From Candidatus Altimarinota bacterium (GTDB taxonomy: Bacteria; Patescibacteriota; Gracilibacteria; CAIRYL01; GCA-016699755), in assembly GCA_963664295.1 (NCBI GenBank), contig OY760935.1:580667-620666 (forward strand): a DNA stretch of 40,000 bases, in the 5' to 3' direction. The notes beneath the pieces are model-generated. The model did not search any database, had not been told where the DNA came from, and saw only the letters and a list, made by a program, of their open reading frames with translations. The position numbers and the translations under genes were made by a program. Shown here piece by piece: positions 2,516-38,980 of the stretch. Positions within the stretch are counted from its first letter, which is position 1. Every line of letters begins with the position of its first letter.

Positions 2516-5500
2516 AGTCTTTTAGCGTGATAAACCATTTCTTGTATTGCTCCTTGGTTTGGGAAAACTTTTTCTTTATAAGCAATAAAGCGTAAAAAAT
2601 CATATCTTTGCTTTGCTTCTATTTCTCCGCCAATATTTTCTTGAATTGTTGCTTTAAACAAAGCTTCGTCAACACTATCTTTAGTAGGAAAACTAGACAA
2701 AGAAGCATCTTGCCACTTTGTTTTATCTCTATCTTGCTTAGAACTAAAATATTTACGAGGGTTTTTTTGAACTTTTTTCCAGTCAATCATATTAACCAAC
2801 TTCATCTCATTTTCATTCCTAAAACATTCTAAAATTCTCTTACCTTTTGTTGATGTGCTAAGGTCAGAGGCAAGTCGAAAACGCATACCCTCTGGATCTC
2901 TGGCATTATCTATCCAATCACCTCCCTTATAAGATGCATACATAATACCACCACCCAATGCTATGTATTCATTATCCCAATTGCCTGAACGAAATGACAC
3001 CAATGTATTTGCCAAGGTTGTTGCTGCACCATAGAAAAAAGCAAAAAATCTAAAAATATTTCCTGGGGTCATATTAGCGTTTAAATCAGTTTCTCTGTTG
3101 TAATCTTCTCTTGATCTTCGCATAGTAAAAGCATTTACCCCTCTTGCATCTCCATATCTATCTTCAGTAAATTCTCCGTATTGCTCTTTGTTCATTGCCA
3201 AATTTCTAGCATGAATTGCTCTTGCTTCTGCACAAAGCTCCAAAACCGCAGCATTTTTTATATGCCCTTGTGTTTTTAATTTCTTTAGCTCTTTATCAGT
3301 TAATCCTTTTTTTGCTTTATCTACAAACAATTTTTTTATTTTTACTGCCTGAGTATCATCACGAGAATCATTTAAAAACTTAAATAAATCTTCCGACATA
3401 TGCGCACCATTTGTTTGAATAAAAAGCACAACCTGATCCATCATGTGTAAACAATCACCATTTTTGTTAATTATTTCCTCTTTTCTTGCTTGGATTGCTG
3501 TTTTTATTTTTTCATCTACGCCATCAAATAATTCGCCTGACTCTCTTTTTTGTTCTTTTTCTGCTTGTTCTTGTCTTCTTTTTGCTTCTGCTATGATTTC
3601 TTTATTATTTGCTATTGCTCTTGGTGAATGAATTTCTTCTTTCATTAAATCCACTATTGCTTTGTGAAAAATAAAATCCTCTTCTGCTCTGGCTTTTTCT
3701 GCTGGACTTGCTGTGTCGGATTTAATTGTTGCCCTTGCTAAAAGCATTTGTTGTTCAGACGATTTTCTTATTTCACTTGCATTTACAAATTTAGAAGATC
3801 CAGCAGTTCTATAGAAATCAAGAATAACTTTTTGTAAATAAGCAACATTATAAGGGGTTCTAGTAAGCAAATTAAGTCTCTCTTTCATTTGTTTAATTTT
3901 CGAATCAAAATCATCAATCTGCTGATTAAATTCAGCGATTGCTTGATTTTTTTGAACTATTTCTGCATCAATAGCTTTGGTTTGCTGGGTCAACTTTTGA
4001 ATTTCTTGATTTTTTTCAGCTATTTCTGCATCAAGAGGGTCAATCTGCTGAACAATTGCCTCAATTTTTTGTTTCTGTTCAAGAAATAATTGGTCATCAT
4101 CACCTTTTTCCCATTGCATTTTTACTTTTGGATTTATATCTGGATTTATAAAAGCTTTAAGCCTCTCTGCCTCTTGAGCTAATTTTTCTTTTCTTTCAAG
4201 CGTTTGTAGCAATTCTTGAGTTAAAACATTAATCCTTTCTTTTAAGGGGTCTCTTAATTTAACTTTTTCTTTAATAGCCTGCTCAATAGGCTTAAGCTCT
4301 TCTTTTAATAAATCTTTAGCTTCAGTTCCTTTTGCTATTGCTTGTTCTAAGTCTTGAATTTGTTTTCGTAAATCAACTTGTTGTTCTTTAAAATAATCTG
4401 TGAATTCCTGAGGTGTTTTTGTGCTTAAAAGCTTAATAAAGTCTAATATTTCTTGTCTTTTTTGTGCTATTTTTGGTAGTCTTTCTGCTAAAAATTTACT
4501 TTCTTGCAAAATACCAAGTTGCAATTCAGAACCAAGTGCAGAATTATTTAATATATCTCTTTCTGCTCTTTCTATTGCTCTTATTCTGCGCTTATCCATT
4601 GTTTCTTCTGCTAATATTTTTTTTAACAATCTTATTTCTTCTAATAAGCCTTTATTTTTAGGATCTTCTTCTAGTTCCTGCATTTTTTTTAGCAATCTTT
4701 TTTCTATCCTTGCCTTGCGGGCTGTGAGAATTTTGATTTCAATAGTAGAAATTGCGTCTTCAAATGATTTTTCAAAAAAATCAACTTCTCTATGCAAAGC
4801 TAAAAATCTTTTCTGATGCTCCTCTTTTAATTCTAATTTTTCTGATTGCGCAAGCTGATCCTGCAAAAACTCTCTCAGTTTCACTAATGGCTGATCTTGA
4901 ATATTTAATTCTTTAAACATATCCAATCTTTCTTTAAGTCGATCTTTTGTGCCTGTAAGCAATAAATCTTCCTTTTTTATTATTTCTGCAATCAATTTAT
5001 CATCAACTTTTTGTAATTTTTCTATTTCATCATCTCTTTCTTTTAATTTTGTCCTTAATCCTTTAGTTTCATTTTTTCCGCCACCATTTAATTTCAAGTT
5101 TATGTCTGCTATTCTTTCTTTAGTTTTATCAAGTTCTTTCCTGTCTTCTTCTGTCAACATCCTATCAATTTGATAATTTTGACGAAGAAGTTCTTTTTTC
5201 TCTGCTAGTTGTTTTGCTTCCTGCTCTAAATTAAAAACTTTTATTCTAAGTTGCGAAGCATCTGCTTTTAATTCTGCTACTTTTGCTTCACGTTCTTTTA
5301 CATTTTCAAGCCCTTGAGCAAAAAAACTTTTTAAATTTTCCACAGCCTCCCAACTAACTTGTCTTTTTTCTGCTTCTTCTCTCGCTGTTTTTTCTGTTAT
5401 CACTTCTCCTGTGTGCTGATATAAACCTTTTCTTTTGTTTAAAATTATGCCTGCCAAATCATCTATTAAGGCTTGTAAATCATTTGGTTTTATTATTATT

Positions 5501-5856
5501 TCATCTTCTTTTAATGCCTCTAAAAATTTATACAAATCTGAGCGCTCATCTTCTTTTCTTTCCCCTCCTACATCAAAAATAACAGAATTTATATCTGTAT
5601 CTGGAAAATCTTTTTTTAATCTCTCATATAATCTTGTTTCAATTTCTTTTTTTATCCTTTCCCGTGTCTTTTTTTCATCAATTTTTTCTACTACCTCTGT
5701 TTCTTTTGATCCAGGAATAGGCACAGTTTCTTTTGCATAAACTGTATATGGGCTTAAATCTTTAACTAAATCATCAAAATAATTATCTATTTGATCAGCT
5801 CGCTCTATAACGGGCTCTTTTTCTCCTGCCGGCAATTTTCCTTCTATTTCTGCCAC
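2512..5856 (-). CDS. Giant coiled-coil protein, 1114 aa, with a C-terminal hydrophobic hairpin and a small C-terminal domain
   Basis: About 900 aa of E/K/Q/L-rich heptad-like sequence, then GNIFRFFAFFYGAATTLANTLVSF ... YIALGGGIMYASY. No Walker A or other enzymatic motif seen. Confidence 0.85.
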   Translation of the reverse strand: MAEIEGKLPAGEKEPVIERADQIDNYFDDLVKDLSPYTVYAKETVPIPGSKETEVVEKIDEKKTRERIKKEIETRLYERLKKDFPDTDINSVIFDVGGERKEDERSDLYKFLEALKEDEIIIKPNDLQALIDDLAGIILNKRKGLYQHTGEVITEKTAREEAEKRQVSWEAVENLKSFFAQGLENVKEREAKVAELKADASQLRIKVFNLEQEAKQLAEKKELLRQNYQIDRMLTEEDRKELDKTKERIADINLKLNGGGKNETKGLRTKLKERDDEIEKLQKVDDKLIAEIIKKEDLLLTGTKDRLKERLDMFKELNIQDQPLVKLREFLQDQLAQSEKLELKEEHQKRFLALHREVDFFEKSFEDAISTIEIKILTARKARIEKRLLKKMQELEEDPKNKGLLEEIRLLKKILAEETMDKRRIRAIERAERDILNNSALGSELQLGILQESKFLAERLPKIAQKRQEILDFIKLLSTKTPQEFTDYFKEQQVDLRKQIQDLEQAIAKGTEAKDLLKEELKPIEQAIKEKVKLRDPLKERINVLTQELLQTLERKEKLAQEAERLKAFINPDINPKVKMQWEKGDDDQLFLEQKQKIEAIVQQIDPLDAEIAEKNQEIQKLTQQTKAIDAEIVQKNQAIAEFNQQIDDFDSKIKQMKERLNLLTRTPYNVAYLQKVILDFYRTAGSSKFVNASEIRKSSEQQMLLARATIKSDTASPAEKARAEEDFIFHKAIVDLMKEEIHSPRAIANNKEIIAEAKRRQEQAEKEQKRESGELFDGVDEKIKTAIQARKEEIINKNGDCLHMMDQVVLFIQTNGAHMSEDLFKFLNDSRDDTQAVKIKKLFVDKAKKGLTDKELKKLKTQGHIKNAAVLELCAEARAIHARNLAMNKEQYGEFTEDRYGDARGVNAFTMRRSREDYNRETDLNANMTPGNIFRFFAFFYGAATTLANTLVSFRSGNWDNEYIALGGGIMYASYKGGDWIDNARDPEGMRFRLASDLSTSTKGKRILECFRNENEMKLVNMIDWKKVQKNPRKYFSSKQDRDKTKWQDASLSSFPTKDSVDEALFKATIQENIGGEIEAKQRYDFLRFIAYKEKVFPNQGAIQEMVYHAKRL

Positions 5857-5861
5857 TTTTT

Positions 5862-6359
5862 TTAAAGCTTAAAAAGGCGAATTAAAATTTCAGAAAAAGT
5901 TTCTGTGCGATTTTTCCATTCAGAAACCTCCTGACTCAAAAGAGCTCTTACCTCTGCTGGATTTTGATCTCCCAATTGAATTGCGATCTGACGCACAACT
6001 CCACGAGTAATACGCAAATTAAGCGTTTTTACATGAGGAGGATCATAAATAATCCAAAAAAGACCAATGTCTTCATAAGGATAAAACCTTGGACCAAACT
6101 TAATTCCTGCATCTGTTATTACAATATCTACAATTTCCGGCTTGTGGTTATATGTCAAAAAAAACACTACTGCCAAAAGCACAACCACAACTGAAAAAGC
6201 GATTGAATCAGTTAAGATTCCATAAAGAATAAGGCCAACAACTAAAACACTCATCACAAAAACCCAAACAGGTCCTCTTTTGTGCTCTAAAAACTCTGGC
6301 GCTTGCCAGGCAATAAGCGGTGTTCCATAGGAAATTTGGTTTTTATTTTCAGTTGTCAT
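5862..6359 (-). CDS. Small membrane protein, 165 aa, with two adjacent TM helices followed by a soluble domain (bacterial PH-like / YdbS-like topology, unverified)
   Basis: The TM pair is VWVFVMSVLVVGLILYGIL / IAFSVVVVLLAVVFFLTY, followed by a roughly 90-aa soluble part. It is the first gene of the operon, 5 nt upstream of the 1114-aa gene. Confidence 0.8.
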   Translation of the reverse strand: MTTENKNQISYGTPLIAWQAPEFLEHKRGPVWVFVMSVLVVGLILYGILTDSIAFSVVVVLLAVVFFLTYNHKPEIVDIVITDAGIKFGPRFYPYEDIGLFWIIYDPPHVKTLNLRITRGVVRQIAIQLGDQNPAEVRALLSQEVSEWKNRTETFSEILIRLFKL

Positions 6360-6502: not shown

Positions 6503-6903
6503 GTCATTCTGATGGAATGAAATCACCTTTTTTGTCATTCTGAGCGGAAAACACAACCTTTCTGTCATTCTGAGCGTAATGAAATGGAGCGAAGAATCTC
6601 CTTGTCCATGCGCTCAAGTCCTGCCTTAGGTAATTCAACAGTAATGACAACGGGAGATCCTTCGCTTCGCCTAAAGGCTCGCTCAGGATGACAGAATAAG
6701 GGGGATGGATGACATTACATTTGTCATTGTGGATTTCTTGAAGGTGTCATTATGAGCTTTTTGGGGGTGTCGTTGCGGGCTACGACCCGCAATCTCGGGA
6801 GGCAGGAGGTGTCATTCTGAGCGTAAAACACACCCTTACTGTCATTCTGAGCGAAGTGAAATGGAGCGAAGAATCTCCTTTTCCATTTGCTCAAGTCTTG
6901 CCT
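6503..6903. repeat. Cluster of short hairpin repeats (GTCATTCTGAGCG...GAAGAATCTCC family), including one inverted-repeat composite of about 129 bp (6564-6692)
   Basis: Forward units start at 6503, 6534, 6564, 6723, 6745, 6769, 6811 and 6841. One inverted unit lies at 6652-6692. The same family occurs at 38487-38915. Confidence 0.85.
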
Positions 6904-8789: not shown

Positions 8790-9767
8790 TTAAGAGGTAT
8801 TTTTGATAAATACTTTAAGTAATTCAATAAAACCATAAGTATTTACAAAATAATTATTTTTATTTTTTTTTAAATTTTGCAAAATATTTTTTCTTTGCTC
8901 AAATGGCTTACCACTTTTTATTGCTTCATTTGCTAATAAGTTAAAATAAATACCATCCAAAAAAGAAATATAGTGAACATCTTTATCTTGATGTGATATA
9001 AAATCTATAATCTCAGACATTTGCTTATCTTGACCACCTCCAGACTCTTTCATGTGTTTATGCTCCATAATAAGAATATGGTCATTAATTTTGATTAAAA
9101 AGTCTGTCTGTTTTTTCTGCTTATTTTTTGACCACTTAAATTTTAACTTAAAATGTTTTAATATTTTTTCAAACAAAATCTTGTCTGCTTTGTCAGGACA
9201 TATATAAATATGATTACTTTTAATAAATTCATCTATATTTTTTGATGAAAAATATGAAAATCCAAACTGATTCAAGATATTTATAATTTTTTTATTTGCA
9301 GCATTGCCATTACCTTTATGTGCTTTTGAGTCTTTGATCGCCTGCAACGAAGAAAATGAATAACCGTGAATTTTATACAACAAGTGTCTATCTTTTATAA
9401 ATTCTGGTATTACATTTTTTAAAAACTCAATTTGTATAAAATGATTTGAATTAAATGTTTTATAAGCACTATATGACATATCTTTCAATGCCCAATAACT
9501 TGTAAATTCAGTATTATTTATTCCAGATGTTTTTAAAATTTTTACAATATTCTCCAATATAATATTTTGCATTTTTTTATTTTTTGACTTAATAGCAATT
9601 TTATATGCAGCAATGTTGTCACATATTTCCACATTGGATTTCATTAAGTTGTTTAGCTTTTTTGGATTGTCAGTAATTATCGGCTTACTATCTTTTACAT
9701 AATATTCATCAATATAAGATTCTTTATTTTTTATGCTTAAGCTAAAAATTTGAATATTACTAATCAT
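8790..9767 (-). CDS. Putative type II restriction endonuclease, 325 aa, partner of the adjacent methyltransferase
   Basis: It lies immediately downstream (11-nt gap) of the N6-adenine MTase gene. A PD-(D/E)XK-like motif is present: TDFLIKINDHILIMEHK (D...E-x-K). Very low GC. Confidence 0.5.
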   Translation of the reverse strand: MISNIQIFSLSIKNKESYIDEYYVKDSKPIITDNPKKLNNLMKSNVEICDNIAAYKIAIKSKNKKMQNIILENIVKILKTSGINNTEFTSYWALKDMSYSAYKTFNSNHFIQIEFLKNVIPEFIKDRHLLYKIHGYSFSSLQAIKDSKAHKGNGNAANKKIINILNQFGFSYFSSKNIDEFIKSNHIYICPDKADKILFEKILKHFKLKFKWSKNKQKKQTDFLIKINDHILIMEHKHMKESGGGQDKQMSEIIDFISHQDKDVHYISFLDGIYFNLLANEAIKSGKPFEQRKNILQNLKKNKNNYFVNTYGFIELLKVFIKNTS

Positions 9768-9778
9768 AATTTAAGTTA

Positions 9779-10789
9779 TTAAAATAATTTTACACTTGGC
9801 ATAACTTTTTCATAAGCTTCTTCTAAGATAGCTCTTGCTGTTTGATAATCTAACCTTCTTCTTCTTTCGCCATTTTTTTTATTACCTTTAAATGGCGAAA
9901 GAAGAAGATCATTAGTTTTTAATCTAAAACTAAATAGTATTTGATTACTTTTTTTAATTATCTTTTCAATTGCTTCTTCGTCTGCTTTCATTTCAATTAA
10001 AGTTATCAATCTTGAGCTAACTTTTATTGTACTAAGATCATAATCAATCTCTTCTGGTTTCATAAACTGAATTAACTTTTTTGTGCTTGTTGTGTCTACT
10101 GCCCTCAATGCTATTTGCCCTCTAGATGAATTAAATCTTATATCAATATGTTTTTGTGGTATTTTTCTCATTTTTTCTATTTCTGCAAAATTACCAATAT
10201 ACTTATCATTTTTATAAACTTTTATTTGACTATAATCTTTATTTTTATTATCAAAACAAATTACACATACAGGATTTTCTGTGTCAAAAAACATTAAATC
10301 CTCAATTATTGTAATATTTTGTATTCTGTGTTTTGGAAACGATGAATTAATAAATGTTTCTGGGACTATCATTACTCCAAAATCATTATTCTCCATACAC
10401 CTGCTAATTGCTAATTGATATAAATCATTATAAGAACACATATTAAAATATTTACTAACTCCGTCATAAATGCCTTTTCTTTTTGCGCTATAGTTTGTTA
10501 AGTACGGCGGATTAGTGATAATTATAGAGTTTTTTATTCTGGGAATATGTTCTAAGCTATTATTAAATTTCCAACCCAAAAATTCATCTATATCTAAACC
10601 AACAACTTTTGAAAAACCTATTTTTTTAGCAATATTTAATAAATCTCCATTGCCAGCAAATGGATCAAAAGCTATTTCTGCTTTAGTAGACTTAATAAAA
10701 CCTAAAACATGATCTTTTAACCAAAAATGTTTTTTTGTAAAAAACTGACCCAAACTTTTCTTTTTTGCAATTATACTCATTAACTTCAT
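9779..10789 (-). CDS. N6-adenine DNA methyltransferase (gamma-type motif order), 336 aa
   Basis: Motifs appear in the order LGQFFT (motif X), FDPFAGNGDLL (motif I, SAM binding), IITNPPY (motif IV). Confidence 0.85.
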   Translation of the reverse strand: MKLMSIIAKKKSLGQFFTKKHFWLKDHVLGFIKSTKAEIAFDPFAGNGDLLNIAKKIGFSKVVGLDIDEFLGWKFNNSLEHIPRIKNSIIITNPPYLTNYSAKRKGIYDGVSKYFNMCSYNDLYQLAISRCMENNDFGVMIVPETFINSSFPKHRIQNITIIEDLMFFDTENPVCVICFDNKNKDYSQIKVYKNDKYIGNFAEIEKMRKIPQKHIDIRFNSSRGQIALRAVDTTSTKKLIQFMKPEEIDYDLSTIKVSSRLITLIEMKADEEAIEKIIKKSNQILFSFRLKTNDLLLSPFKGNKKNGERRRRLDYQTARAILEEAYEKVMPSVKLF

Positions 10790-10826: not shown

Positions 10827-10911
10827 TGGTGGGCAGTGAGGGATTCGAACCCCCGAACTCAGAGAGAGCAGATTTACAGTCTGCCGCCGTTGACCGCTTG
10901 GCTAACTGCCC
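10827..10911 (-). tRNA. tRNA-Tyr (anticodon GTA), 85 nt, long variable arm, CCA encoded
   Basis: The reverse complement is GGGCAGTTAGCCAAGCGGTCAACGGCGGCAGACTGTAAATCTGCTCTCTCTGAGTTCGGGGGTTCGAATCCCTCACTGCCCACCA. Acceptor stem is GGGCAGT/ACTGCCC, anticodon loop CTGTAAA, T-loop TTCGAAT. Confidence 0.92.
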
Positions 10912-11128
10912 ACGATTATATAATTTATTGCTAATTTTTAAGTTTCTGGAGAACAGTTGCTAAGTCTGCACGGGTTGACCGCTTGGCTAACTGCCCACGA
11001 TTATATAATTTATTGCTAATTTTTAAGTTTCTGGAGAACAGTTGCTAAGTCTGCACGGGTTGACCGCTTGGCTAACTGCCCACGATTATATAATTTATTG
11101 CTAATTTTTAAGTTTCTGGAGAACAGTT
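10878..11128. repeat. Tandem repeat, 85-bp unit, about 2.95 copies. Each unit holds a 5' fragment of tRNA-Tyr plus its upstream leader.
   Basis: Units run 10878-10962 (inside and at the real tRNA), 10963-11047 and 11048-11128. Units 2 and 3 are identical as printed. They differ from the real tRNA at 4 clustered bases (ACGG vs CGCC). Confidence 0.95.
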
Positions 11129-24094: not shown

Positions 24095-24757
24095 TTATAC
24101 ACTCACCACCTTCAGCTTTCCTTTAACTTTAAGATTATCTTTGTCTTTTTCTTGCCATTCAAAATCAATTTCTTGACCCAAATCATCAGCGTTCATAAGA
24201 AGATTTTCCTGCATTTTTTCCTGCGATGGAATAGCACAATAAATCGTTTTTTGCGCTTGTAGCTCAGGAAAAGCAAGCACACTCTCAAAAGAAAAAGATA
24301 ATTTTTCATTATCCAGCGTAATTAACATTGTACCTTTTTTGTTTAATTCAGCGTCTTCTTTGCCGTCTTCGCTATATAACTCTAACTTTTTAGTGCTAAT
24401 TTTATCCACAACAGCAATACATCTAGGTTTTCCTAATTGTTCAGCAACTTGCTTTTGTTCTTCCTTGCTTAAATCCGCACCTAAACCGCTCAAAAGAGAG
24501 GCTATATCGCCTCCCTGAGCTTTTAAAATACTCTCCAAATCAGCCAAAAATTCAATTTGGCTATCAACTTTATATTGATGACCTTCAATATTTGCTAATA
24601 ATTCCACATCAACAACAATGCGATGACTTGGGCTCATGTCCTCTGCAACTTGCTGGCCAGCTTGGTTCATAGCACCAAGCCCGCCAGAGTAAGCATCTTG
24701 CAAATCTTCCATTGCATCACCAAGGGCGCCAAAATCTATACCAAAAGGGTTGTTCAT
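24095..24757 (-). CDS. Hypothetical acidic protein, 220 aa
   Basis: Long ORF, 9 nt downstream of the lipoprotein gene. No recognisable motif. Confidence 0.65.
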   Translation of the reverse strand: MNNPFGIDFGALGDAMEDLQDAYSGGLGAMNQAGQQVAEDMSPSHRIVVDVELLANIEGHQYKVDSQIEFLADLESILKAQGGDIASLLSGLGADLSKEEQKQVAEQLGKPRCIAVVDKISTKKLELYSEDGKEDAELNKKGTMLITLDNEKLSFSFESVLAFPELQAQKTIYCAIPSQEKMQENLLMNADDLGQEIDFEWQEKDKDNLKVKGKLKVVSV

Positions 24758-24766
24758 AAATAAAAG

Positions 24767-25315
24767 CTATTGTTGAGCTTTTCGAACCATAATTTGAACT
24801 TGTTTATATTCTTTGTCGTGTGATACAGAAATTGTGTATTTACCTTCAAATTTGCCATTCAAAGTATTAGTCACAGACATAACAGATGCTGACCAACCTG
24901 CATCTTCTAAATCAGCTTCATATTTCTCCAAAGCATCTTCATCAACTTCATCAAAATCAACAATCCAAGAGCCCATACCACTTACATTTTCCTGAGCAGA
25001 GCCATATTTAAACTCTGGCACCTCAGAAGGCATATCACTTGGCCAAGAACCAGCTGTGCTATCATTAGAATTATATTTATCATCACTTTGATTCCACACA
25101 CTATCTTTATCATTAGAAGCATCGCAATTTTTCTTGCACATAGCTACATTTTCACTACCTCCTCCCCATTCTTCACACTGCGCATAACATTCATTTTTTC
25201 CAAATTCATCATCATTTTGACCAGAAGCTTGCTCATTTTCTTCAGCATGATGACAGCCAGCTAGAACAGCTGTAAATAAAGTCATAAAACAAAAAATTGC
25301 CAATGTTTTTTTCAT
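24767..25315 (-). CDS. Hypothetical acidic lipoprotein, 182 aa
   Basis: Signal peptide with lipobox (VLAGC). The mature part is Cys- and Asp/Glu-rich. Confidence 0.7.
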   Translation of the reverse strand: MKKTLAIFCFMTLFTAVLAGCHHAEENEQASGQNDDEFGKNECYAQCEEWGGGSENVAMCKKNCDASNDKDSVWNQSDDKYNSNDSTAGSWPSDMPSEVPEFKYGSAQENVSGMGSWIVDFDEVDEDALEKYEADLEDAGWSASVMSVTNTLNGKFEGKYTISVSHDKEYKQVQIMVRKAQQ

Positions 25316-25480: not shown

Positions 25481-25563
25481 TCGAACCCACGGGTTCTTAT
25501 CTCTGTTTCTCATTCGCAGGAGCAAAACCTCGTGCCTTTGGCACGAGAACTTGCTCCTGGCGG
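25481..25563 (-). repeat. Copy A of an 83-nt element: a CCGCCA terminus plus a 77-nt sequence containing a long hairpin
   Basis: As printed, it is 83/83 identical to 25806-25888. The hairpin is GGAGCAA-GTT-CTCGTGCC-AAA-GGCACGAG-GTT-TTGCTCC, and the element ends in GAACCCGTGGGTTC. Confidence 0.9.
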
Positions 25564-25693
25564 GACACTCGGGTCTCCTACCTTTTTGGGTAAAAATGAG
25601 AAGATGCAAAAAAATAGCGAACGCCAGTGAGCGAGAGGGGTGAATTGGGCGGGCGTGTACCGCCCAAGAGGGGCGACGCTAGCCCCTTATAAT

Positions 25694-25711
25694 TGGCGGA
25701 GAGAACGGGAT
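25694..25711 (-). repeat. 18-nt exact direct repeat of the tRNA-Ser 3' end (att-like)
   Basis: ATCCCGTTCTCTCCGCCA on the minus strand is identical to 25900..25883 inside tRNA-Ser. Confidence 0.9.
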
Positions 25712-25805
25712 GCTCATTTTTTCGGAGCTTTGCTCCTCAAAAATAAGGCCTTCTGCGCTCGCTCGGAATTTTGCGCAAGCACAAATTCACTCGCTCGCTT
25801 GAGTG

Positions 25806-25888
25806 TCGAACCCACGGGTTCTTATCTCTGTTTCTCATTCGCAGGAGCAAAACCTCGTGCCTTTGGCACGAGAACTTGCTCCTGGCGG
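25806..25888 (-). repeat. Copy B of the 83-nt element. Its first 6 nt are the CCGCCA 3' end of tRNA-Ser.
   Basis: Identical to 25481-25563. Confidence 0.9.
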
Positions 25889-25970
25889 AGAGAACGGGAT
25901 TCGAACCCGTGGTGACTTTCGCCACACACGCTTTCCAAGCGTGCGCATTCGACCACTCTGCCATCTCTCC
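25883..25970 (-). tRNA. tRNA-Ser (anticodon GGA), 88 nt, long variable arm, CCA encoded
   Basis: The reverse complement is GGAGAGATGGCAGAGTGGTCGAATGCGCACGCTTGGAAAGCGTGTGTGGCGAAAGTCACCACGGGTTCGAATCCCGTTCTCTCCGCCA. Acceptor stem is GGAGAGA/TCTCTCC and the anticodon loop is TTGGAAA. Confidence 0.92.
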
Positions 25971-25994
25971 TTAGTTTAATATTTTTTCTGACTT

Positions 25995-26051
25995 GCGCAC
26001 GCTTGTTTTTTGCGTGCTCTATTCATATTGCGACCACTCTGCCATCTCTCC
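25995..26051 (-). pseudogene. Degenerate 5' fragment of tRNA-Ser (first 21 nt exact, plus an anticodon-arm-like hairpin)
   Basis: GGAGAGATGGCAGAGTGGTCG (26051..26031) equals tRNA-Ser positions 1-21. It is followed by GCACGC-AAAAAACAA-GCGTGC, which echoes the anticodon stem CACGC/GCGTG. There is no T arm. Confidence 0.75.
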
Positions 26052-26125
26052 TGAAAAATCAAGATACAAAAAAGACGCTTTTAATTTATATTTTTCGCGC
26101 CTTTTAATCAAACAAAATTATTTAT

Positions 26126-26314
26126 CTATGCTTTATTTAATGTTTTTAAGCATTTTGTGCATATTTTTTTTCTTGAAAATGCTTTTTTTACAGGATCCCA
26201 AATTCTTTTTCTAATCAAATTTGGCAAAAATTTTCTTTTTGTCCTGCGAACAGAATGACTAACATTATTTCCTGTTGAGCTTTTTTTCCCGCACATTTCA
26301 CATACTTTTGCCAT
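26126..26314 (-). CDS. rpmB: 50S ribosomal protein L28 (bL28)
   Basis: MAKVCEMCGKKSSTGNNVSHSVRRTKRKFLPNL. Confidence 0.9.
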   Translation of the reverse strand: MAKVCEMCGKKSSTGNNVSHSVRRTKRKFLPNLIRKRIWDPVKKAFSRKKICTKCLKTLNKA

Positions 26315-38157: not shown

Positions 38158-38486
38158 GGATAATTCCTTTCTACGTGTTCTTGAAGTTTAAACAAGGATG
38201 AGCAGTAGCTAGAAAACACCTCCTTCCAGTTTCCTGTTGAAAGTTTATATGTTTGAATGACTTTAAAAGTCATAATTAATCGCAAAGAGATGGACCATCA
38301 GCTTCTTATGAAAATCACGCACAATATGCATGTGGTGTTTCTTTGAAACTAACAGTCCACTCTTTACAGCCAAATTGTTAAAGATCAGTTTAAGTATTAT
38401 ATACTTTTTTTTATATTTGTCAATAGTAATATATATAAAAAAATAATTCTCCTAATAACGCATATAAAAGAGAAAAAAACCGCTTT

Positions 38487-38915
38487 GTCATTCTGAGCGG
38501 AGTGAAATGGAGCGAAGAATCTCCTTGTTTATTCTTTCAAAACCTGCCTTATCTTGTCATTGCGGAATTGATCCGCAATCTCCTTTACCATACGCTCAAA
38601 AACTAATTCGGTTATTACAATAGTAATGACTACGGGAGATCCTTCGTTTCACTCGGGATGACTGTTTTATTTGTCATTCTAAACAAACTATTTTTGTCAT
38701 TCTGAGCGGAGTGAAGTAGAGCGAAGAATCTCCTTAAAACATATACTCAAACCTTGCCTTAGGTGTTCCTCTGCTGTCATTCTGAGCGAAGCGAAGAATC
38801 TCCTTGGACATGTGCCCAAAAACTAGCTTGGCTATTACAGCAGTAATGACTACGGGAGATTCCTCGACTCGCCTAAAGGCTCGCTCGGAATGACAAAAAA
38901 GAAGATCAGGATGAC
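38487..38915. repeat. Second cluster of the GTCATT...AATCTCC hairpin-repeat family, including two inverted-repeat composites (38556-38662 and 38776-38893)
   Basis: Forward units start at 38487, 38556, 38673, 38696 and 38776. Inverted units lie at 38634-38662 and 38854-38893. Confidence 0.85.
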
Positions 38916-38980
38916 AATCATTGTAAATGAAAACACTAAGCGATCCGCCTAGGCGGACAATGCGTAACTTATTTTTATTT

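Follow-up and report, generated by a model that had tools for sequence, protein, structure and literature searches.

In the tRNA-gene islands of Prochlorococcus, partial transfer RNA (tRNA) copies separate successive elements and persist as scattered remnants of degraded ones (bioRxiv 10.1101/2020.12.28.424599). We analysed a 40,000-nt stretch of the genome of a Candidatus Altimarinota bacterium (assembly GCA_963664295.1, contig OY760935.1, positions 580,667 to 620,666 of the forward strand), hereafter the window, in which the 3' end of a tRNA-Ser(GGA) gene and the 77 nt that follow it are repeated. Like tRNA-gene islands such as the tycheposon islands of Prochlorococcus, this locus has a direct repeat that covers the tRNA 3' end starting in the T-loop, and past the intact gene come serial partial tRNA copies, with variable orphan genes adjoining; plain and occupied sites are seen at the equivalent tRNA-Gly of other relatives. 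It differs from them in having no integrase in or near the bracketed DNA, an insert of 94 nt, a repeat that extends 77 nt past the tRNA and a partial copy of the tRNA 5' end.

Two other systems invite comparison. Cis-mobilisable elements (CIMEs), known from around ICESt1 of Streptococcus thermophilus, are integrase-less remnants flanked by attachment (att) sites and open to mobilisation in trans. Their length is in the kilobase range, and a resident integrative and conjugative element has been shown to mobilise them. The window is alike in that two att-like direct repeats bracket DNA without recombination functions, but the bracketed DNA is shorter than 100 nt and has no known partner element. 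In homing insertions, such as that of the GIY-YIG open reading frame (ORF) at atp6 in Allomyces mitochondria, the incoming DNA brings a replacement for part of the target and the displaced fragment stays. Two relatives of the window (L050 and L055) similarly have a GIY-YIG gene that is preceded by a 5' pseudo-tRNA and followed by a full tRNA, beyond which lies a displaced 3' fragment, and tRNA-Ser in the window shows the same nesting. The window differs in that it has no nuclease gene (by tblastn for GIY-YIG) and in that the target is a tRNA gene rather than a protein-coding one. The feature is of a kind already known, a recombination scar at a tRNA gene. The one aspect of note beyond that kind is the nesting of a full gene between a 5' fragment and a 3' fragment, found at three loci in the clade.

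All coordinates in the repeat field are window positions, read on the minus strand. The intact tRNA-Ser(GGA), with a genomically encoded CCA, occupies 25970..25883 (ARAGORN; Rfam tRNA, 61.6 bits). Its last 18 nt, ATCCCGTTCTCTCCGCCA, run from the 'AT' of the T-loop to the CCA (A) and are followed by a 77-nt trailer (B); the resulting 95-nt unit (A+B) is present twice, 189 nt apart. Repeat comparison places copy 1 (A1+B1) at 25806..25900. Copy 2 is split: an exact solo tRNA-Ser 3' fragment (A2, 25711..25694) and a second trailer (B2, 25557..25481, 77/77 identical to 25806-25882) are separated by 136 nt, consisting of a 130-nt segment, y, and a second CCGCCA (25558..25563). Deleting 25693..25558 restores A2+B2 to A1+B1 with 95/95 identity. 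Identity ends sharply at both edges of the unit, inside the T-loop and after GGGTTCGA, with no decayed homology further out. The 8-mer GGGTTCGA precedes both unit boundaries, once in the T-loop and once as the end of B. A 95-nt unit split by a 130-nt insert is the cleanest reading of the repeat field.

The 18-mer gave zero matches in shuffled sequence even with up to three mismatches allowed, and none of 100 shuffles gave a repeat like the exact 83-nt one at 25481-25563 and 25806-25888. Since repeats of such size are absent from shuffled sequence, chance is excluded. An earlier reading of this DNA from the letters alone (the original prediction) had described the recurrence of the 18-mer, the 83/83 identity including the CCGCCA, and a 171-nt interval between the 18-mers; each of these is as it had claimed, and we found no credible ORF within the interval. 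It had also proposed a degenerate third copy, CCCGAGTGTCCCGCCA. That sequence is present, but its likeness to the tRNA end is confined to CCCG and CCGCCA. Because removing 136 nt restores the 95/95 identity, this 'third tRNA end' is most simply the end of y together with a 6-bp duplication at the insertion point. The second CCGCCA, which had been counted into the 83-nt repeat and taken for a tRNA-like terminus, is most simply that duplication, flanking y.

The order of the repeat field is A-B-x-A-B-z, where z is the sequence after copy 2. Segment x (25712..25805; 94 nt, 49% GC) lies between the repeat copies and is non-coding, with no ORF, no Rfam match and no terminal inverted repeats. Segment y (25564..25693; 130 nt, 53% GC) splits copy 2 exactly at the junction of CCA and trailer and folds into two GC-rich hairpins followed by an AT-rich part. 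Terminal inverted repeats are likewise missing from the 77-mer and y, and the 6-bp duplication flanks y alone. The GC content of x, y and B (49-53%) stands above that of the whole window (34%) and of the sequence after B2 (24%).

A partial copy of the tRNA also lies on the 5' side (25988..26052; repeat search and alignment). Its first 22 nt (26052..26031), 81 nt upstream, exactly match the base preceding tRNA-Ser plus the first 21 nt of the tRNA. The remainder (26030..25988) resembles degenerate anticodon and variable arms and lacks a T-arm and 3' end. ARAGORN found no split, permuted or tmRNA-like gene, and the only nearby acceptor partner for the solo 3' fragments is this upstream 5' fragment. 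The neighbour upstream of tRNA-Ser is the ribosomal protein L28 gene (rpmB, 26126..26314, minus strand; an ORF with L28 homologues), which served as the synteny anchor for comparison with relatives.

Among the relatives with tRNA-Ser(GGA) after L28, the only syntenic one with readable downstream sequence is L043, a metagenome-assembled genome labelled Gracilibacteria. Its gene order (M50 protease, L28, tRNA-Ser) is that of the window. The M50 proteases are 47% identical, the nearest homologue of the window protein being 56% identical, and the two tRNA-Ser genes are 96.6% identical. L28 is also followed by tRNA-Ser(GGA) in L044 and L048; L044 is an independent assembly, and a comparison of 600 nt showed no difference from L043. 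Downstream of tRNA-Ser, L043 has ~210 nt, the fragment TCCCGCTCTCTCCGCCA, ~180 nt and the fragment CCCGCTCTCTC. Feature by feature, this sequence runs from an AT-only hairpin and a tail, ATGAGAACCCGCAGGGTTCGACATTCGAG, through ~150 nt to TCCCGCTCTCTCCGCCA, a second tail, GAGATAAGAACCCAAAGGTTCGACATC, ~140 nt and a truncated third fragment. The fragment junctions fall at the same tRNA position as in the window, with left flanks AAGCC|TCCCG (twice) against GAGC|ATCCCG in the window; the L043 counterpart of A2 has a similar left flank and matches the L043 tRNA. In each genome, every fragment and also the first tail agree with the resident tRNA in their T-stem variant, which is A-T in the window and G-C in L043. 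Segment x has homology to each of the two stretches between the L043 fragments (z-scores 4.7 and 5.1, 0/300 shuffles). The two L043 units, V1 and V2, both homologous to x, have diverged from each other (z-score 3.9). The 3' part of y weakly resembles V1 (z-score 3.0). An alternative parse is weakly suggested, in which this part of y together with CCCGAGTGTCCCGCCA corresponds to the end of the first L043 unit and A2 would belong to a newer insert. Past the tRNA-Ser fragments, at the end of the L043 contig (~190-140 and 50-1, minus strand), we observed a ~50-nt repeat, ATCTCTCAGCGAGGATTGTGACCGGAGACGAAnCAATCGAACGGAGTGAGAG, twice, ~150 nt apart.

In the two closest relatives the contig runs out at the tRNA-Ser locus: that of L048 (position 1) inside the tRNA-Ser anticodon arm, and that of L047 (position 1) just after a diverged counterpart of the window's 5' pseudo-fragment. 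Repeats would be expected to break an assembly in this manner. L043 is the one informative relative for tRNA-Ser, and its site is occupied.

The trailer begins directly 3' of the CCA with a hairpin (25844..25882). These first 39 nt fold stably as GGAGCAA-GTT-CTCGTGCC-AAA-GGCACGAG-GTT-TTGCTCC, and when we refolded the 83-mer (-40.9 kcal/mol, z-score -6.65), both this fold and the terminal near-palindrome came out as the original prediction had drawn them. The hairpin is terminator-like because its inner 9-bp stem runs into TTTT, and a consensus terminator scan called TCTCGTGCCAAAGGCACGAGG followed by TTTTGCTCCT at both trailer copies. Placed directly after tRNA-Ser, it fits the definition of an intrinsic terminator, and a terminator-like function is predicted. 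It resembles the intrinsic (Rho-independent) terminators of tRNA operons in its GC-rich stem-loop right after the CCA and its short T run, and a hairpin is likewise found at that position after further tRNAs, both of the window and of relatives. It differs in that the TTTT run is short and lies inside the outer stem. A hairpin immediately after the CCA is a positional feature, with unrelated hairpins in L043, L050, L053 and L055; the AT hairpin of L043 occupies the same position as the GC hairpin of the window but is unrelated to it.

The remainder of the trailer, its tail (25806..25843), is a degenerate inverted copy of the tRNA T-arm and acceptor 3' strand (25 nt, 76% complementary) and closes with the hairpin GAACC-CGTG-GGTTC. 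The inverted copy of the tRNA-Ser 3' end occupies the last ~30 nt of the 77-mer (z-score 5.4, 0/300 shuffles). It is specific to tRNA-Ser, the z-score being 2.6 in L043 and at most 1.3 at ten other tRNAs. Because the tail inverts the tRNA end, the 3' third of the tRNA, the hairpin and the tail make up a ~100-nt imperfect palindrome, which folds into one long imperfect hairpin in the window (-62.6 kcal/mol, z-score -8.5) and in L043 (z-score -5.7). The tail motif GAGATAAGAACCC..GGTTCGACA is conserved in L043, and between the two genomes there is one compensatory change (CCACGGG/CCCGUGG against CCGCGGG/CCCGC(A)GG). On the covariation that the original prediction had proposed to look for, the comparison covers two genomes: both keep the long hairpin, with this one compensatory pair, and the GC hairpin is replaced by an AT hairpin in L043.

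We scanned viral contigs, about 185,000 genomes and the Joint Genome Institute (JGI) metagenomes with short patterns. The 77-mer has only its two local copies in the 40-kb window, the part of the source genome that was covered, and no other copy in any of these collections. An element-specific 20-mer had 0 matches in the JGI metagenomes, and an 18-nt pattern, the tail and a degenerate tail had 0 matches in the viral contigs. The pattern of the tail motif, GATAAGAACCCNNNGGTTCGA, and x had 0 matches in the other 52 fetched loci and 0 in the viral contigs. In the viral contigs four patterns in total matched nothing, and the tRNA-end 18-mer matched two contigs, with no tRNA there and in seemingly unrelated coding sequence. 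The inner 19-nt hairpin, CTCGTGCCAAAGGCACGAG, was found at 14 genome loci and 26 metagenome loci, and at none did the likeness to the element extend past 19-24 nt. The search for the element in related genomes that the original prediction had called for therefore returned nothing beyond the inner hairpin in the genome scan. In Rfam, at gathering and at permissive thresholds, only tRNAs matched, everything else lying far below gathering. With no further copies in the window or the collections, no Rfam family and a GC hairpin that is not conserved in L043, the proposal that the 77-mer is a miniature element or a structured RNA with a CCA end is not supported. The 77-mer is best read as the downstream trailer of tRNA-Ser itself, a passive part of a duplicated attachment region, and not an independent element or a CCA-using RNA. 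That an apparently new RNA or element with a CCA end resolves into a trailer in this way is a caution for the reading of tRNA flanks.

We also considered a small ORF across the trailer and x, where a 44-residue ORF was called in L043 and there is a VRHS / ERRR resemblance. It was rejected because the peptide search was empty, the frame is lost over a 1-nt indel and the conservation is at the nucleotide level.

Other relatives, whose L28 proteins are 71-79% identical, have tRNA-Gly after L28. In L052 and L053 a plain tRNA-Gly is followed by a terminator. In L050 (identical to L051) the order is a 5' pseudo-copy, a GIY-YIG gene of 85 codons, the full tRNA, 75 nt, the solo fragment TTACCCGCTCCA and a terminator, which is the one found directly after the tRNA in L053. 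The first 28 nt of the L050 pseudo-copy are exact, and a small hairpin stands in place of the anticodon arm. L055 has the same layout, but its pseudo-copy reaches through the T-loop, its GIY-YIG gene is broken by a stop codon, and ~660 nt including an ORF of 137 codons lie between the tRNA and the solo fragment TTACCCGCTCCA, after which comes a diverged repeat of the tRNA's own trailer. In both, tRNA-Gly(GCC) is nested in a split older copy of itself with a 12-nt 3' fragment (L050 4289-4776, identical to L051; L055 2388-3470). At these tRNA-Gly sites the duplicated stretch is again the tRNA 3' end plus trailer. Both pseudo-copies have, instead of the anticodon-loop region, one and the same 15-nt hairpin, which is inverted between them (TCCCGTATTGCGGGA and TCCCGCAATACGGGA).

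L053 carries a gene for a 521-residue large serine recombinase (Resolvase, Recombinase and zinc-ribbon domains; 4410-5975) that ends inside the 3' end of tRNA-Gly. Several ORFs without a family match follow it, and this region is probably an integrated element. Because plain and occupied sites coexist among the relatives, the L28-adjacent tRNA is a recurrent insertion point in the clade; it adds to what is known of these poorly known ultra-small bacteria a site with partial tRNA copies on both sides. The genes just past this tRNA are different in every relative. In the window they are orphans: two ORFs of 182 and 220 codons (24095..25315, minus strand), without Pfam or PHROG match, lie between the repeat field and a flavodoxin-like gene and may be island cargo.

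The reading that we prefer, with confidence and doubt in even balance, is that insertions or duplications have left decayed scars here, at the 3' end of the one tRNA-Ser(GGA) gene that lies downstream of rpmB. The duplication has the pattern of an attachment site because the repeat starts in the T-loop, passes through the CCA into the trailer, and loses identity abruptly. As with attL and attR, the direct repeat includes the 3' part of the tRNA and one copy lies in the intact gene. Of the two explanations offered by the original prediction, serial integration scars are better supported than a miniature element or structured RNA, though this support is partial: the att-like repeat, the solo fragments of L043 and the occupied relatives speak for them, and the lack of a recombinase in the window speaks against them.

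The comparisons show how the repeats are built, that L043 conserves this anatomy, and that the equivalent tRNA of other relatives is either plain or occupied with mobile-type genes. That a recombinase-borne element was the cause in the window, and the following order of events, we infer. DNA carrying its own 95-nt A+B copy would have entered by site-specific or homology-driven recombination with the resident copy, leaving two 95-nt direct repeats, one on each side of the insert. The inserted DNA would later have shrunk to the 94-nt x. Later still, the 130-nt y would have entered the distal repeat at the junction of CCA and trailer, duplicating CCGCCA. The upstream 5' pseudo-fragment may represent a further partial duplication of the tRNA-Ser gene. 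The trailer would be native to tRNA-Ser, its terminator-like hairpin being followed by a pseudo-copy of the tRNA 3' end that is old and inverted.

Several observations weigh against this reading. Neither a recombinase or integrase (Pfam on 15 ORFs) nor a GIY-YIG gene (tblastn) was found in the window, so that the absence of an integrase and of any ORF from the bracket, as originally noted, stands. The 15 scanned ORFs include ten of the 33 with at least 150 codons, and three large window ORFs had no Pfam match. A recombinase gene in or next to the bracket is missing from the window, and only L053 among the relatives has one at its tRNA. We found no phage or plasmid bearing a matching attP; BLAST against phages and plasmids matched only the tRNA itself. 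Segment x is tiny and yet homologous in two distant genomes, which is odd for independently decayed elements and easier to reconcile with an ancient arrangement passed down vertically, or with a unit that is truly small. Because a perfect repeat 189 nt from its partner should be unstable, the 95-nt repeat must be recent or maintained by conversion. The 5' pseudo-fragment is not predicted by classical integration at a 3' end. Finally, duplication without a mobile element does occur in this genome, because tRNA-Tyr shows plain tandem 5' units.

This last case supports the rival that fares best, a purely local duplication without any mobile element, through slippage, template switching or unequal exchange at the tRNA and its palindromic trailer. 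Under it, the field would be an old tandem array of ~190-210-nt units starting in the T-loop, parts of which gene conversion from the selected tRNA would keep identical, and template switching at the hairpin would have given rise to the inverted pseudo-copy. At tRNA-Tyr (10827-10911, minus strand), three head-to-tail 85-nt units lie at 10864-11128. Every unit comprises an AT-rich leader, in which there is a TATAAT box, and an exact copy of the first 23 nt, followed by a diverged piece like an anticodon arm. Just the last runs into the full tRNA, and the two extra units, identical to each other, form a plain tandem repeat. We found no 3' fragment downstream of tRNA-Tyr and no such partial copies at tRNA-Thr and tRNA-Trp in the window. 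Local duplication is further favoured by the presence of GGGTTCGA before both boundaries of the 95-nt unit, by V1 and V2, whose divergence from each other and homology to x fit an old array, and by the fragments and tail following their own genome's T-stem variant, as they would under conversion or templated correction. The 5' pseudo-fragment must also be old, since L047 has a diverged version of it, but in the window it still matches the tRNA exactly over its first 22 nt.

Against local duplication, A-B-x-A-B-z is no simple square: z shows no similarity to x (z-score -0.6), and for this reason we rejected a simple tandem duplication of A-B-x. The identity of the repeat stops abruptly with no decayed homology past its ends, and the equivalent tRNA of relatives is either plain or occupied with mobile-type genes. 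An 18-nt stretch is also short for recombination-dependent conversion, which counts against this model. We regard local duplication with gene conversion as a serious rival, although an unlikely one.

Insertion of small cassettes is doubtful, with a low probability in our estimate. In this model, small cassettes in Peregrinibacteria/Gracilibacteria-like members of the candidate phyla radiation (CPR) would enter the T-loop region of a resident tRNA, bringing a replacement tRNA and trailer, and the window would be a nuclease-less, possibly trans-mobilised miniature member. The old tRNA would be left as split 5' and 3' halves around the new one, sometimes with a GIY-YIG gene or cargo aboard, and the conserved tail GAACC-N4-5-GGTTCGA, a mimic of the T-arm, would serve as the recognition site. 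Should nested tRNA replacement prove to be an active mechanism, mobile DNA would have a novel means of settling in a tRNA gene that is essential and present once, with the host surviving.

We also judge it quite improbable that x is itself a miniature non-autonomous integrative unit, using the tRNA-end/trailer repeat as its attachment site and a recombinase or homing nuclease acting in trans, with independent insertions at tRNA-Ser in different lineages. Such a unit would account for the presence of x once in the window and twice in L043, each time bracketed by 3' fragments that exactly match the local tRNA. These exact fragments look recent because the older-looking ones are decayed (CCCGAGTGTC in the window; CCCGCTCTCTC-GCTCC in L043), and in the two closest relatives the assembled sequence breaks off within or beside the tRNA-Ser locus, as repeats predict. 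However, neither x nor the tail turned up at a third locus or in a third genome among the 52 other loci and the viral contigs, and the 20-mer had no match in the metagenomes; x has no terminal inverted repeats, and no recombinase was identified. With two genomes, vertical inheritance explains the homology of x equally well.

Least probable is a functional RNA whose tail would pair with the T-arm and acceptor 3' strand of the precursor to control 3' processing or termination, the solo fragments being decoys or extra processing sites: the long tRNA-trailer hairpin of both genomes, the compensatory change, the restriction of the inverted copy to tRNA-Ser and a tail motif kept while neighbouring proteins are ~47% identical all favour it, but only two genomes are involved, the lone covarying pair is equally explained by templated correction of a quasi-palindrome, no Rfam family matches, the central hairpin sequence is not conserved in L043, and pairing cannot be the role of the tail at B2 and L043 V2, where it persists beside solo fragments that lack a T-arm partner.

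Elsewhere in the window, a restriction-modification pair (a Tsp45I-like nuclease and an Eco57I-like methylase; 8790-10789, 24% GC) lies directly downstream of tRNA-Tyr and looks like inserted cargo; no tRNA-Tyr 3' fragment was found beyond it. A dispersed repeat family unrelated to the trailer, composed of TGTCATTCTGAGCG..GAAATGGAGCGAAGAATCTCCTT and a second module, occurs at two places in the window, with copies 72-93% alike (6533-6714, 6810-6903, 38456-38549, 38577-38650, 38681-38735 and 38797-38916).

We compared the trailer with small palindromic families, namely miniature inverted-repeat transposable elements (MITEs), in-frame palindromic elements such as the Rickettsia palindromic elements (RPEs) and a 69-nt family of CPR genomes. 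The inner 19-nt CTCGTGCCAAAGGCACGAG is identical to the core hairpin of the CPR family, and y is flanked by a 6-bp duplication much as members of that family have ~6-bp target duplications. The 77-mer differs in lacking the family's terminal inverted repeats and second hairpin, and no dispersed copies of it were found in the window or the collections; the family arms CCCGTnnGAAGT / ACTTCnnACGGG are absent from the window, and the 77-mer is not a member. The 19-mer as a mobile unit of its own with a GTT duplication was rejected, other families carrying the 19-mer without such a duplication.

The CPR element itself, seen in CPR genomes and metagenomes, is a palindrome of ~69 nt (up to 82 nt) whose termini are the inverted repeats CCCGTnnGAAGT / ACTTCnnACGGG. 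It contains two hairpins, of which one is usually identical to the 19-mer of the window. Copies were located at L004 1759-1835; L005 4583-4654 and 6271-6343; L007 5001-5069 (identical to L021 and L033); L010 3060-3128; L029 5312-5380; L032 2224-2292; L036 823-891 and 13632-13700; and L039 842-923. Exact 6-nt direct repeats (GTTGAC, ATTGAT and ATACAT) flank three of the copies; the flanking repeats of the others are shorter or imperfect. Variants keep the hairpin through compensatory changes, and some copies appear to lie inside ORFs. No Rfam match was obtained at the four loci scanned.

The same 19-nt hairpin also occurs in a second GC-rich structured repeat, ..GGGGCACTGAGCATAGTAAGGGGGGC[hairpin]AATCGAGACGCCGAAGGCGTCGAGGGG.., of a few related metagenomes (L017, L020, L030, L035 and L042, and more distantly L027, L031 and L040), which had no Rfam match at the five loci scanned. 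In Idiomarina genomes it is found in arrays resembling repetitive extragenic palindromic (REP) sequences (L001, L014, L018, L019 and L025).

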